A stretch of DNA of 64,000 nt, taken from contig OZ024746.1 in the NCBI GenBank assembly GCA_964016885.1, forward strand, positions 32,426,001 through 32,490,000. Reading direction: 5' to 3'. The DNA comes from Eledone cirrhosa. Lineage: Eukaryota. A program made the position numbers and the translations under genes. Numbering within the stretch: position 1 is the stretch's first letter; every line of letters begins with the position of its first letter. The notes under the pieces are model-generated. The model saw only the letters and a program-made list of their open reading frames with translations, was not told the origin of the DNA and did no database searches. Below are positions 1 to 63,978 of the stretch, piece after piece.

Positions 1-304
1 AATGAATACATCAAAGAATGAATTTTACAATAGATTGGGAGCACTCAACAAAAAAAGGTTTTCCAGAGTTATTAATATTAATTCAAAATATTAACAAAAT
101 ATATATTCTTGTGATCAAGTATATTTTATTATACATATTTCAGAGGTAGACTGAATCTTAACCATCTGCTGTCAGGGCATGTCATGCATCATCTTATTTT
201 ATCTGATGAGGACGTACTGTTGAACTTAACTCAGTACCTCTGAAATATGTATAATAAAATATACTTGATCACAAGAATATCTATTTTGTTAATATTTTGA
301 ATTA
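1..304 (+). mobile_element. Hammerhead-bearing fold-back element (family A), Penelope-like pLTR remnant
   Basis: 78-148 is a near-perfect reverse complement of 235-304. The plus arm contains a hammerhead and ends in (TA)n. The left arm continues to the window edge. Confidence 0.75.
195..261 (+). ncRNA. Type I hammerhead ribozyme (family A)
   Basis: Stem I TATTTTAT(195-202)/ATAAAATA(254-261); CTGATGA 203-209; stem II GGAcGTACTG/CAGTACcTCT; GAAA 242-245; minimal stem III; AUA cleavage triplet ending at 253. Confidence 0.8.
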
Positions 305-328
305 ATATATATATATATATATATAAGG

Positions 329-377
329 ACGGTGCCCCAGCATGGCCTCAGCCGGATGGCTGGAACAGGTAAAAGAG
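329..377 (+). mobile_element. SINE/LINE 3' tail fragment
   Basis: GGTGCCCCAGCATGGCC...GGAACAGGTAAAAGA resembles a cephalopod SINE tail as I recall it. A diverged copy lies at ~37381-37421. Confidence 0.5.
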
Positions 378-454
378 TAATATCCAAGGAAAACTTGAAC
401 CGGTAAGGTATTTTCCTTGGTTATGTCAAAATTTATAAAACACACTTCGTATTT

Positions 455-505
455 TATCTGATGAAAGCGTACCAAAGTTTTGGTACCCTTGAAATATATA
501 TAATA
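455..505 (+). ncRNA. Type I hammerhead ribozyme (family A, diverged copy)
   Basis: TAT-CTGATGA(458-464)-AAGcGTACCAAA/TTTGGTACcCTT-GAAA(491-494)-TATATA-TA^ATA, then AATAAA. The tail to ~650 is homologous to the reverse complement of 1-148. Confidence 0.75.
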
Positions 506-812
506 GAATAAATATGATTTTATAAATATAGTTTCCATTTATTTAATATCATTGAATATTATACCCCAGAAAACTTGTTGAGTGCTCTGAATCAGTTATA
601 AACATTTATATTTGTTGAATTACCAACAAATTGAATATCCCTTCTGCTTATATATATATATATATATATATATATATATATATATATATATATATATATA
701 TATAATGTAGGAGGTGAGTTTTATTGTAGTACAATAAAGCAATGCAGATATCGGATAAGAAGCACTCTACAGTTTGTGGGACTGGAGTATGCATATATAT
801 ATATATATATAT

Positions 813-1008
813 ATAGGAACGAGTAGGACCCCAACGGCTGAGCTCAAGCCGTTTCGACGGCTAATTCTGGACTGTGAATTAGCCGTCGAAACGGCTTGAG
901 CTCAGCCGTCGGGGTCCTACTCGTTCCTATTACCCACTCTACTACCCTAAGTATTGAGTACTTGGGTGCGTTATGGTCCACCTGGTTCCTTACCACATTT
1001 CCTTCGTT
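813..1008 (+). mobile_element. Family B element: 55-bp-arm palindrome made of two hammerhead 3' halves, plus tail
   Basis: Arms 813-867 and 876-930 differ by one mismatch. The right arm reads GCCGTC-GAAA-CGGCT..AGCCG-TC^GGGG. (TA)n on both sides. Confidence 0.85.
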
Positions 1009-1612
1009 ATATATATATATATATATATATGTTATGTAATATACATGTGTCATTGTTTACATACCATCGACCACTTACGAAAGATTGCCACGACTTATTT
1101 TGATTAGAAGTAAAATAGATAAATAAAAGTTTGTGGAGAGAAAGAAAGACAAAAGAAGAGAGGGAGAGAAAACTATCGTAAATTCCTCGTGACTCACATT
1201 TTTGTTTTAGATATGTAAATAGTAATATAATTGTAACGGTTTCTAATTTAGATACAAGACCAACAAGATAAAGATGGTAGTGGTGGTGGTGATTTTATCC
1301 ACCTCAGTACATAACTGGTACTTTATTTTATCGGCCCATGAATGATGGAAGGCAAAATTGACATCAGTTGGACTTGATTGAATTCAGAACATAAAAGGGT
1401 TGTAATGAATAATATTAATTTACTAATAAATTAGGGGTCGATAAAATATAGTGCCAGTAATCCACTGGGTAATTGCTGGCCTTGTGCCAAAAGTAGAAAC
1501 AATTATTAATAATTAATAATAATAATGATGATGATGACGATGATGATGATAATGGTGGTGGTGGTGATGATGATGATAATGGTAATAATGGTGATAATGA
1601 TAATGATGATGA

Positions 1613-60414: not shown

Positions 60415-60700
60415 TTTTTATTCAGAATGACTGCCCTCTTACACAAGCTGCTTTCACTACATTTTATGGAAGTCATGTCTGTTCCATGCAGTCTTATTTT
60501 TTCAGAATAACTACCCTCCTAGATGGTCTCTCTTCACCAAGGCTTATGGAGTAACCCTCTACCCCATGCAGTATTATTTATTCAGAGTAACTACCCTCTT
60601 AGATGGACTGTCTTTACCATGGCTTATGGAGTAATTGTCTAGCCCCATGCATTTTTTTTTTATTCAAAGTAACCACCCTCCTTGTTTTCACAATGGCTTA
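60415..60700. repeat. Degenerate ~80-bp tandem repeat in a ZC4H2 intron
   Basis: TTCAGA(G/A)TAACTACCCTC-like motif recurs about four times. Confidence 0.65.
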
Positions 60701-61435
60701 CAGTGCCCATGTAGACAATACATATTTCTCCAATAATGCTGTTACTCATCTAAATATATGTTTGTACAAGTCTTTTATCACTTTTTAAAATATTTATTTT
60801 CCATTCTTTTAATGTGTTCATAAATTTAGATATCAATACTTTGTATTGACAATATTGTTCAATCAGATTTAGCAAATAATCAATCAATAATTACTTGAAG
60901 AATAGTAAAATCTATTAGTTTACCAGATCTATGAAAGCCAGGTATGGTGGCTTACACTCAGCTAAGAACTCCTCTTGTAGTTGTCTCACTAAAAAGTGGT
61001 GCTCTCTCTTGGCACAAACTACTCAGCTAAGAACTTTTCTTGTAGTTGTCTCACTAAGAAGAGAGCATCTGTGGTGCTCCTTCCTGGCATAAAGGCACTC
61101 AACTAAAAACTTCTCTTGTAGTTGTCTCATTAAGAAGGCATCTGTGGTGCTCAAAACCAAACTGCATCTCTTATAATTTGGTTCTTTTCCTAATTAGATG
61201 CATCACAACCTGATATGTCAGTTTAATGCTTTTATAGTTATTTCTTTCTAGAACATATAATTTTCTTTTGTAACAGTTGTTAATGATAGAGTGTGTTTCT
61301 TTGTTCAGAACCAATCACTTCTTTAGAGGATGAAAATAACAAAAATCTTGCATACATATAAGAAAGTAAAATTAAGTTATTAATTTTATAATATTAATTT
61401 TAAACTATAACAATTGTTAAAAAGGCAAAGCTTAC

Positions 61436-61581
61436 TCAGGTGTGAGTTTTTCTTCCTCATCCTGCAGCTCTCGTGACTTTTCTAGCCCAACTGACATTCA
61501 TCTTTAAGAGGTGTGTATTCTTCATATAGTCTCTTTGTAGAATCCAGGGCCCTATTTCGCTCATCTTCAGCTTGTTTCCAC
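61436..61581 (-). pseudogene. ZC4H2: ZC4H2 exon 3 (146 nt, two deletions)
   Basis: KQAEDERNRALDSTKRLYEEYTPLKDE / SVGLEKSRELQDEEEKLTP in different frames; tttcag acceptor and gtaag donor. Confidence 0.9.
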
Positions 61582-62285
61582 CTGAAAGTAAAACCCAAAG
61601 GAGGGAAAACATTGATAGAATAAAATGTAATATTTTGAAGATTTCTGAAATAATTGAGTAATGTTTTTTTTTTTTTTTTTACCTCAGTTTTTTTGTTTCA
61701 ATTTCAGTGTGGTGAATAAAAGAATATTAGATAGTGGGAAAAATGTTTTGTGGCATTTAATATACATAATGAAGACCATGAAGAAGGGCAAACATAGATA
61801 CCTCTATGAAATTCTGTGTTTTGATATTAGCACTCGCCACTTTTTTTGTAAAAAGAAAAGTCTTAAATTGTGAAAATAAAAACCTGTCTTAAGATGTTAT
61901 ACCTTTCAGATTGTGTAATATTCAAAATATATTGTATGAAAAAGATAATTTTAAAATTCTAAATTGTTTTGTGTTCTTGGAACAACGAAAAAATTACATT
62001 TCACAGATAGAGCTGCTACTTCTCCGAATTGAAAGATCACAATGTCTCAGGAAAGAATCGCTGTACAGATTTTATGGCAAAACCAACTGGCAGGAGAGCC
62101 AGGCATTGGCCAAGTGTAAGATCGTTGGATAACATTCATAAGCATTGCCTGTCTTGCTTGGGGATCTAGCCAGATCAATTGGAGATAGTTGTTTCTCACA
62201 GGATCTGTTGGAAGGGGTGTTTGAGAACTTTGCCCCCATAACCGTACCAGGAATAAATGAGCAAAGAAGAAGACTATTAAAAACC

Positions 62286-62457
62286 CAAGTTAATATCTGC
62301 ATGAATAAGACGTAATTCTTCAACATGTGCCATCTTTTCCCGAAATAATAATTCCATCTCTTGCTTATATTTTTCAAGACATCATTCTTCACACTCTGCA
62401 ATATCAAACTCCTGCTTCAGACGGCTTTTGATTTTCTCAAGATGAATACTTCTGCTT
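62286..62457 (-). pseudogene. ZC4H2: ZC4H2 exon 2 (172 nt)
   Basis: [59 protein letters not shown] at 62382-62384; the expected donor reads GG. Confidence 0.93.
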
Positions 62458-63878
62458 CTGAAAGTAAATACCAAATATATGTTTAAAACATTTTGCATAA
62501 TGTGAAAAAATGAACTCAGTATTTAAAGTGATTCTACATGTTGTAAAATGGTTGGTGATAGGAAGGGCATCAAAGTTTGCCAAACAAAGGGTAAGAACTC
62601 TTATGATGTGATGTGTGGCTGATTGTCGCACTTGGTGGCGAATTGATGGTTGTTTTTGTTTTTCCCTTTTATGTGTTTATATATGTGTTTATTAACATTA
62701 TATTTGTAATGTTCTTCTGAACGAATTGCAAGCAATTTATAATGCTATTTACGCATTTGTAATGTTATTTATGTATATATTCAAAACATATTCGTAATGT
62801 TATAAATACTTAATTATATAAATATTTCACATAACAATATAAAATCAAAACAAAAGAAAACACTATGTAACGTGTGTCAATTGGTCATACACAAGGGGTA
62901 CCAGAGCCTCCTTCTAATCATTTTTGAGGCAAGCTAACACATTGGCAGCATTACTGAGGGTGATAGAGAGGCTAAGGTACAGAAACAACCAAGCACTTAC
63001 TTGGCTAATATGCCATACTGGTAAGAAGATGCATAATAGTTTTAATGAAGTCTAGTACGTTTACTGATACTTATTTTATCAACCTTAAATTTGAACCAAA
63101 CAGAATTTGAACTCAGAACTAATGAACAAAAGACAAGTTTAGAGCTCTACGGTTAAATGTTTTAGACTGATTCAAAGGTATTTTTACTATTGTTATTGTT
63201 TAGCTCAGGGTCAGTCCTGATGAAGCAGACCTATGGTCAAAGACGTATCCAGTCTTTCTGTATATTTGACTACAGTATCTTGAGTTACCTCCCTTTGAAC
63301 TTTGATATTATTTATTGATTATAATGTATATTTGAATGACATATTCAGTGCCTAATTGCATTGCAATGACTCACAAATAAGCAAAGCCACGCTCAGTGGT
63401 TATTATCAGGCTTCTCAACATTCACGCATTATGCGAAAATTTCCAGATTTTGCTTTCTCATCACGCAATTTTAGTTCTCCCACATTTACGATATTCTATG
63501 TTTCGCTCAACAATTTTTGATGCGGACGATATTCTAGTTTATTCTGAAGGTTGTAAAAAAGACTTACTGATGTTGGTTTAAAAGAGACCCCACCCCCAAC
63601 ACACACACTTTTACCTATTGTATTATCCACCCAAAGACCGAAGTCAACTAGATAATTTCCGACGCTTTTATAAAGGAATATCATCATTTATTATGCTAAA
63701 ATCCAACATAAATTCACAATGAATTTCTAGATTATCAACTACTGCCAGATAACAATGTTTAGGATGAAGCTTTAGTTTCTGAATGTACAGATGATGCAAA
63801 TACGAATAATTGTGATTCAAAGTATTATATAATTGATGTTTTATGGGATTATTTATGTGTGTGTGTGTATATATATAT

Positions 63879-63978
63879 AACGAAGGAAGTGTGGTAAGGA
63901 ACCAGATGGACCATAACGCATCAGAGTACTCAATACTTAGGGTAGTAGAGTGGGTAATAGGAAAATATTTAACCCCGA
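63879..63978 (-). mobile_element. Family B tail-only copy
   Basis: Reverse complement of 5380-5481; ends in (TA)n. Confidence 0.85.

Follow-up and report, generated by a model that had tools for sequence, protein, structure and literature searches.

A motif shared by hammerhead tails in Eledone cirrhosa as one strand of a predicted twin hairpin in Hydra-clade Penelope-like elements

Why should hammerhead ribozyme families that look unrelated carry the same ten letters in their 3' tails? In the window, a 64,000-nt stretch of Eledone cirrhosa contig OZ024746.1 (positions 32,426,001 to 32,490,000), an earlier note had listed eight occurrences of TTGAGTRCTC and proposed a cis signal, for example an RT-recognition site or a promoter element, shared by otherwise dissimilar ribozyme families. 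The eight positions and strands are all correct: six are exact and two, at 954 and 36388, have one mismatch each and are copies of families with exact sites. Six exact matches compare with 0.35 expected and with 0 of 100 shuffles; the one-mismatch count in the window (10 versus 9.0 expected) is by itself no excess over chance. The eight sites represent five families (954/5427/63924; 578; 39; 8988/36388; 47969), and a ninth member at 760-769 on the minus strand, TAGAGTGCTT, had escaped that list. Two further matches were rejected as family members, one at 14436 that is part of an unrelated repeat and one at 58098 that is chance-like and has no hairpin partner.

Across the whole genome the 10-mer is about 100-fold enriched ahead of (TA)n. 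The motif followed after 30-60 nt by (TA)7 gave 11,398 forward matches versus 115 in a reversed control, overlapping matches inflating the reverse count, and a hammerhead core followed after 50-80 nt by the motif gave 728 versus 1; the positional and strand enrichment implied by the original proposal is therefore present. The exact 10-mer is nevertheless too narrow as a definition: in a motif-blind sample of 78 hammerhead cores, GAGYRCT occurs in 20 arms, 69-132 nt from cleavage, and TTGAGTRCTC in just 3 of those 20, the other hammerhead families of the sample being without the hairpin motif. Distances from the predicted cleavage sites in the window (43, 45, 75, 81 and 82 nt) lie near the 45-90 nt first suggested, but the overall span of 43-132 nt is wider, and placement relative to cleavage is variable rather than fixed. 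The narrowness of the 10-mer also weighs on a promoter role. That the motif works in the pLTR as a promoter or enhancer to which a host factor binds is very improbable in our view, the commonest form outside this genome being GAGCACT. The variant TTGAGTG presumably resembles NK-homeodomain sites. For Penelope itself, the consulted part of PMC2377424 places a promoter inside the element and regulatory sequence close to its 34-bp repeat.

The families are not independent. From sequence features, all five appear to be cut-down 3' ends of Hydra-clade Penelope-like elements (PLEs), a group of C-terminal-endonuclease elements described in the parts of Craig et al. 2021 used here (PMC8557442), and each was traced to a protein-coding copy through read-through copies in which the order is hammerhead, H1, spacer, H2 and ATG, H1 and H2 being two copies of a hairpin that contains the motif. 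H2 and a Hydra ORF were found for family 39 (L423-L428), family 578 (L373/L375), family 8988 (L416/L417) and a sixth family, that of the ninth site (L340/L418); family 47969 has H2 and an ORF remnant in a single copy (L429), and the dominant family (954/5427/63924) has intact ORFs of 717-719 aa in L414. Intact young ORFs of 713 aa also occur in this genome, at several loci. The motif is present in the pLTRs of autonomous PLEs, where a signal of theirs would be expected. Because the families all belong to one clade of protein-coding PLEs, their sharing of the motif is descent under constraint.

The coding copies at L414 and L124 (709-713 aa) each have a single ORF with a YRDD reverse transcriptase and (I/V)IY..YIG near the C-terminus. 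Their RWK feature reads RLRWR (R for K), SDKTG has DKT replacing DKG, the linker CxCX5C reads CNCPDRSIC or CNCRNRADC, and the endonuclease has CxxC (PCNLC or PCDLC) and CxH (ACKH) and lacks CCHH; read by eye, one Cys lies within GIY-YIG versus two in the Neptune-like L133. RW[RK] also follows H2 in families 39, 578 and 8988. The published clade likewise combines a single ORF with RW[RK], DKT, CxCX5C, CxxC, CxH, a C-terminal GIY-YIG, a hammerhead and (TA)n targets, and leaves truncated copies in inverted orientation, with the tail on one side only (PMC8557442, in part); the pLTR hammerhead, recognised here by its sequence, and (TA)n insertion are features of the families in this genome too. Assignment was by motif features of ORF, hammerhead and target, and a Pfam search of the L124 ORF gave no match. 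Elements of the clade tend to be shorter than 3 kb, though this is no diagnostic (PMC8557442, parts used); 2.3-3 kb is the usual length of the metagenome contigs that hold an entire ORF, and the tandem repeat of L414 measures 3,542 nt, giving one family here a 3.5-kb unit. The families share with non-LTR retrozymes type I hammerheads in dispersed repeats tied to PLE pLTRs, but are truncated coding elements, not short non-coding tandem repeats (parts examined of PMC7229834 and 10.64898/2026.07.22.740005, which name no recognition hairpin); that they are such retrozymes was rejected, all of them running on into a Hydra ORF in read-through copies. The sole non-coding family, L415/L420, is tandem with a 1.3-kb unit and no ORF match, and keeps both hairpins.

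Neutral shared ancestry of whole tails is another account of a common motif, in keeping with the single clade and with a spacer that aligns in 2 of 45 family pairs. The same comparison leaves 43 pairs unalignable; the family proteins are 34-53% identical to each other, and the motif is kept in relatives about 40% identical. Neutral ancestry appears largely refuted by these comparisons, and we regard it as extremely improbable.

The unit under constraint is best described as a hairpin. The 10-mer corresponds to the 3' strand of a predicted bulged hairpin, RCTC-stem-loop-stem-NN-GAGY-RCT, so the idea of a conserved signal stood and the linear form did not: the unit covaries and is present twice, every family of the window having both copies downstream of the hammerhead and upstream of the start codon. 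Strict GAGYRCT was counted in those Hydra-type loci from metagenomes in which 100 nt or more precede the ORF; of these 45, two motifs occur in 27, one in 11 and none in 7, and matches number 65 in the 45 upstream windows versus 11 in 360 ORF windows. NCTC lies within 32 nt upstream of 45 of 50 deduplicated motifs, versus 14.2 (maximum 24) in 500 shuffles. The predicted pairing is backed by compensatory changes: in raw counts that include related sequences and are uncorrected for kinship, the first inner pair is complementary in 41 of 45 (C-G 28, T-A 10, T.G 3; reached by 2 of 5000 permutations), the second in 28 of 43 and the third in 22 of 34. Pairs were counted in scripts by anchoring on the motif, MAFFT having left the 5' strand unaligned across variable loops. 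Within the E. cirrhosa genome the hairpin is present in 21 of 26 tail clusters, with outer pairs A-T 17, G-C 3, G.T 1 and A.C 0, and four of the other five are cases in which the near-palindromic motif was taken from the wrong strand; a single ancestral change within this genome may account for the A-T form of H1. H2 was sought once the model had been formed and was then found for family 578 (158 versus 3 in the control), family 39 (50 versus 0) and family 47969 (1 true copy among 2 matches). Neptune-like elements, which made up most of what a PF01541 search returned, yielded one hairpin match in 30 downstream flanks (45 kb), from an adjacent Hydra element.

In the window, hammerheads were read from cores and helices in the sequence and cleavage sites were predicted; an Rfam search returned no hammerhead, just microsatellite-driven miRNA matches under the gathering score. 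H1 of family 39 occupies 39..69 on the minus strand (5' strand ACTC 69-66, motif 48-39), its tail crossing the left window edge to (TA)n, and the hammerhead and short inverted arm of this family lie at 203..307 on the plus strand, stopping at (TA)n ahead of H1. Family 578 has a type I hammerhead motif at 458..502 (+), with cleavage predicted after 502, and H1 at 563..587 (+), whose 5' strand is ACCC here and ACTC in relatives and whose tail runs to (TA)n at about 648. H1 of the sixth family is at 760..788 (-), with a tail to (TA)n at about 705. Two fold-back stubs belong to the dominant family. The first, 816..1007 (+), has a short inverted arm from 816 and a sense arm with half a hammerhead, predicted cleavage after 910, H1 at 936-963 and a tail to (TA)n; the second, 5286..5480 (+), has H1 at 5409-5436. 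The motif arm at 39, 954 and 5427 carries the 3' half of the hammerhead only. Family 8988 contributes H1 at 8988..9031 (-), a G.U form with GCTC (9031-9028) opposite GAGT, a long loop and a 41-nt tail to (TA)n, together with a hammerhead and short arm at 9063..9196 on the plus strand, opposite to H1, that stops at (TA)n, and a 5'-truncated stub at 36376..36438 (+) with the 3' half of H1 (motif 36388-36397) and the tail. H1 of family 47969 lies at 47969..47992 (-), with ACTG as its 5' strand here and ACTC in most relatives, and a 41-nt tail to (TA)n; at 48061..48313 two hammerhead motifs with a long stem II stand back to back (48140-48061 on the minus strand, from 48181 on the plus strand), the plus arm terminating at (TA)n. 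At 63880..63966 (-), finally, lies the 3' pLTR end of a partial tandem that belongs to the dominant family, with H1 at 63951-63924; past the window edge the same insertion (L032) continues with H1, tail, H2 and an ORF fragment.

What the hairpins are positioned against is the insertion end, not the cleavage site. Targets are (TA)n, and 201 of 245 insertion ends fall 5-11 nt before H1 or H2 (85 and 116, respectively), 44 lying outside that range; many of these loci were fetched by motif plus (TA)n patterns, a bias toward H2 ends. Of 14 metagenome contigs tried, 5 gave a mappable end, which lay 6-11 nt ahead of a hairpin. In 13 of 15 inverted pairs one arm is short, stopping ahead of H1, and the other is long (P = 0.003 versus independent choice), and TA microhomology of 1-7 nt is present at 173 of 224 ends. 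H2 is missing from almost all insertions even though ends are set relative to it, which argues that the template, rather than the inserted DNA, is where H2 acts.

We think it likely that each hairpin anchors the reverse transcriptase of the element on its RNA, with copying starting about 5-6 nt to the 5' side of the hairpin base. Of the two functions proposed at the outset, RT recognition fits better; a promoter site would explain neither the covarying partner strand nor the placing of ends 5-11 nt upstream of each hairpin. The GIY-YIG domain would nick both (TA)n strands, the nicked ends would pair with a short UA-rich linker ahead of each hairpin, and extension of one strand would begin at the H1 start, that of its partner at the H2 start. 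The arm begun at H2 would copy H1 and the spacer as the "tail" (about 70-140 nt), so the motif would remain on one arm only, and early truncation would join both arms into fold-back stubs. The hairpins are predicted to fold and bind on the sense RNA, in a complex of two subunits, each on one hairpin. A bolder version, which we hold only tentatively, is that the two hairpins of one RNA load two RT subunits. Each would start about 6 nt ahead of the hairpin that loaded it, the two using opposite strands of the nicked (TA)n, so that both arms arise in one coordinated event; the tail would then simply reflect how far apart the two RT anchors lie, and a portable 30-nt hairpin would be enough to program where a telomerase-related RT starts on any RNA. 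Two enzymes copying an overlapping template are a difficulty for the RT-anchor explanation.

The strand on which the structure is read deserves care. Folding is weak (z above -1.7 in 8 of 10 stretches of 81-141 nt, several of the minimum-energy structures lacking H1), and strand polarity is near even, with G.U 9 versus A.C 7 and 31 of 58 folding better as the sense strand. The twin motifs might instead be read as DNA, whether duplex, cruciform or single-stranded cDNA, by the endonuclease or another domain, with ends fixed at a stage that involves DNA, for example when the second strand is primed or when DNA is cut. That would suit the near-palindromic GAGYRCTC and the even strand counts, would account for the sequence conservation of the bulge and of the single-stranded RCT after the stem, and resembles what is reported of the D. 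virilis endonuclease, which needed the tail to recognise plasmid DNA (Frangieh et al., PMC11167929, in part). An RCTC-to-GAGY distance of 5 to about 50 nt with covarying inner bases is, however, ill-suited to duplex recognition, and ends are keyed to an H2 that is itself absent from almost all insertions. Two families have UUCG loops, a stable RNA tetraloop that suits RNA, and we judge reading as DNA to be improbable. Self-dimerisation through the GAGYRCUC palindrome was set aside, the common GAGCACU form placing C opposite A.

Position in the 5' UTR raises another possibility, that the hairpins help to translate the uncapped, hammerhead-cut RNA or to assemble it into an RNP, and that ends follow indirectly. 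Both hairpins are indeed downstream of the cleavage site and upstream of the start codon, and in the metagenome loci the last motif mostly ends 9-39 nt ahead of an ATG; the ends, though, are tightly spaced to both hairpins while the ATG distance is variable, and the non-coding L415/L420 family retains both hairpins, making this quite improbable as the main explanation. Such a role is compatible with RT anchoring.

How PLEs recognise their RNA, and how inverted arms with a one-sided tail arise, are open questions in the field. In the sole in vitro study, for the parts of Frangieh et al. 2024 consulted (PMC11167929), the Poseidon element PAc shows two internal RT starts that bound the tail downstream of the hammerhead and no conserved determinant; both strands of an AT-rich target were nicked and extended, and one AC-rich stem-loop inside the ORF is described, with no repeated element. 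In our elements, of a different clade, there are instead two conserved 5' UTR hairpins, one per start, each left out of the arm that it is predicted to start, unlike the PAc stem-loop; a fixed position to both tail-bounding ends, expected of an RT-recognition RNA element such as the PAc stem-loop, is found here. The PAc start is described as non-homologous to the cut DNA, in contrast to the TA microhomology above (PMC11167929, same parts). In the parts of Craig et al. and its supplement examined (PMC8557442), no hairpin or shared tail motif is described, tails of 30-40 bp are given for PLEs versus the longer ones here, and exact TTGAGTRCTC forms are absent; the form GAGCACTC is found instead, the motif lying at the ends of the coral and sea cucumber consensi Hydra-2_Amil and Hydra-1/2_Ajap and not clearly in Hydra-1_Amil, Hydra-1_Obim or Hydra-1_Crog. 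The motif and hairpin were not found described in the literature searched, a scope outside which lie subscription papers (Arkhipova 2006, Pyatkov 2004), Repbase notes, figures (Frangieh Fig. S2C) and bioRxiv supplements that may bear on novelty.

Telomerase, whose RT is sister to PLE RTs, is positioned on its template by a structured RNA element next to that template. The hairpin would differ in lying 3' of the copied region and setting the start of processive copying; it would nonetheless be a clue to RNA recognition in the sister group of telomerase. Twin RT anchors would explain the one-sided tail left in genomes, and a short, covarying, duplicated hairpin at a fixed offset to both ends is testable by simple mutagenesis. 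It is also a nucleotide-level marker for Hydra-clade ends, which account for a large share of the approximately 150,000 matches to a hammerhead core in this genome.

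TTGAGTRCTC (core GAGYRCT) is, on sequence grounds, one half of a hairpin, a genuine cis element that apparently has not been described before and that belongs to a known group, the Hydra-clade Penelope-like elements (PLEs). The elements, their hammerheads, (TA)n targeting and the tail are already known from the covered portions of earlier reports (PMC8557442, PMC3846280, PMC4209133, PMC2377424); a duplicated hairpin, with copies H1 and H2 between hammerhead and start codon, was not found described in the literature searched, which was covered only in part. The eight sites in the window (from 39, 578, 954, 5427, 8988, 36388, 47969 and 63924) lie where the earlier note placed them and represent five families, named here by site, with 954/5427/63924 as the dominant one. 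Six are exact, against 0.35 expected, and two carry one mismatch, a class whose count (10 versus 9.0 expected) is itself not significant.

Positional and strand enrichment extends across the 3.0-Gb genome that holds the window. Pattern searches for the motif followed at 30-60 nt by (TA)7 gave 11,398 forward-strand matches versus 115 in the control, or an estimated ~23,000 exact copies if that count is doubled; the hammerhead core followed at 50-80 nt by the motif gave 728 versus 1. The type I hammerhead core pattern by itself has ~150,000 matches (control, 9,600), a very high load.

Judged from the read-through copies found for every window family, which continue into Hydra ORFs, what had been called ribozyme families are cut-down 3' ends of Hydra-clade PLEs in (TA)n, many of them folded back on themselves. 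The tail (the stretch from H1 to (TA)n on the long arm; the short arm ends before H1) of site 63924 extends beyond the right window edge into an ORF fragment, and in the dominant family a 3.5-kb tandem (locus L414) carries intact ORFs of 717-719 aa. ORFs of families 578, 8988, 39 and 760 (a sixth window family, with an extra motif at 760-769, minus strand) are 34-47% identical to locus L124, while family 47969 has a single, decayed read-through copy. Proteins of L414 and L124 show the motifs RW[R], DKT, CxCX5C, CxxC and CxH, which are among those listed for the Hydra clade in the covered part of Craig et al. (PMC8557442).

RCTC opens the hairpin on its 5' side; a short inner stem closes a loop whose length varies, and a 2-nt bulge, TT in most cases, precedes GAGY. 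Among metagenome relatives, with motifs chosen by the 3' strand alone (62 before deduplication, 50 after), NCTC lies within 32 nt upstream in 45 of 50, where shuffled sequence gives 14.2. Of these 45 hairpins, 41 keep the innermost-stem pair next to it as C-G, T-A or T.G forms (first inner pair), counts that ignore kinship. In this genome, 233 instances of motif plus (TA)n fell into 26 clusters of at least two copies and 29 singletons; 21 clusters have the hairpin (outer pair A-T in 17, G-C in 3, G.T in 1), and four of the five lacking it are a near-palindrome read on the wrong strand. Two window copies, 578 and 47969, have mutations in the 5' strand, a third, 36388, has lost it by truncation, and predicted hairpins are weak when folded in sequence context. 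Sense and antisense folding are favoured about equally (G.U 9 versus A.C 7; sense the better fold in 31 of 58). In the dominant family (L414:7700-7835, minus strand), the minimum-energy fold pairs the H1 5' strand with the H2 3' strand over 9 bp, a possible alternative conformation.

Out of 77 metagenome loci, some of them copies of one family, 53 entered the analysis, and in 45 of these the ORF was preceded by 100 nt or more; two motifs lie ahead of it in 27, one in 11 and none in 7. Paired motifs are 54-82 nt apart, and for comparison 360 ORF windows held 11 matches. Here H2 follows the tail in 10/10 reference families (targeted searches recovered it for 578, 39 and 47969) and was observed only in read-through copies. 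In the covered portion of the Craig et al. supplement (PMC8557442), the ends of Hydra-2_Amil and Hydra-2_Ajap carry the motif and Hydra-1_Ajap carries it twice; three other new Hydra consensi there have no clear motif. H1 is mostly ACTC/GAGT in this genome and H2 remains GCTC/GAGC, the form of both copies in metagenome loci; the two may have diverged functionally in this lineage.

The tails are not simply homologous along their whole length, the explanation that the earlier note had set against a signal: H1-H2 spacers are alignable in 2/45 family pairs and the 60 nt preceding H1 in 1/45, and the eight window tails align only between same-family pairs. The motif is still common by descent. No hairpin of their own was found within ~1.5 kb downstream at 30/30 Neptune-like GIY-YIG loci. 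Abundant Neptune-like PLEs with a CX4CXXC linker (L063-L091) have the hairpin in none, several seemingly with a degenerate hammerhead core, and further hammerhead families are hairpin-less (L143, L149, L233, L239; L144, L145, L225, L234; L224, L241), some in inverted pairs.

The proposed placement of the motif ~45-90 nt after cleavage fits the window (43-82 nt) but does not amount to constant spacing, the range being 69-132 nt in an unbiased set of 78 distinct hammerhead cores (70 loci around the first matches listed on C1). Unlike cleavage distance, the distance from insertion ends to the hairpins is constant. When 245 distinct (TA)n junctions were mapped onto ten natural reference copies, 85 fell 5-11 nt before H1 and 116 fell 5-11 nt before H2, the latter favoured since junctions were fetched partly by motif plus (TA)n patterns; with TA microhomology allowed, a start 6 nt before the stem fits 141/224 and 5 nt fits 131/224. 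In the unbiased set, 37 arms run into (TA)n no more than 70 nt past the cleavage site and 20 have the motif; the 21 with neither are 3 degenerate Hydra-type copies and 18 other families or chance. Its 17 inverted pairs, less 2 from motif-less families, include 13/15 short plus long, 2 short plus short and no long plus long (P = 0.003 versus independent choice).

According to the covered part of Frangieh et al. (PMC11167929), the Poseidon element PAc has its target nicked and extended on both strands and its tail bounded by two internal reverse transcriptase (RT) starts. On the simplest reading, each hairpin would anchor RT, with copying beginning 5-6 nt upstream of it; an arm begun at H2 would copy H1 and the spacer, yielding a tail that carries the motif, and one begun at H1 would end short of it. 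DNA recognition, translation, promoter function and neutral ancestry were considered as alternatives. H2 fixes where ends fall although it is absent from the insertions, and this argues for a signal acting on the template; RT binding, RNA versus DNA form and subunit number we infer. Retention of H1 and H2 in a non-coding tandem family (L415/L420) fits the expectation for a cis signal. This 1.3-kb family (L415, G000:C1:130882500-130892000) also has a hammerhead, has no Hydra ORF match, and is a candidate non-autonomous partner.

Other features share the window. An unbroken 1119-codon frame at 49128-52484 (minus strand) matches Exo_endo_phos, RVT_1 and zf-RVT and is apparently an intact LINE ORF2. 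The ~1.27-kb element at 6216-7486 (plus strand) is bounded by terminal inverted repeats at TA and holds a transposase-like frame, with a frameshift, at 6363-7360; it looks mariner-like by eye and had no Pfam match. In the hammerhead motifs at 9063-9141 (plus) and 48061-48140 (minus), stem II is unusually long (~60-70 nt), and a SINE-like repeat with window copies at 5038-5216 and 8426-8605 recurs in many fetched loci.
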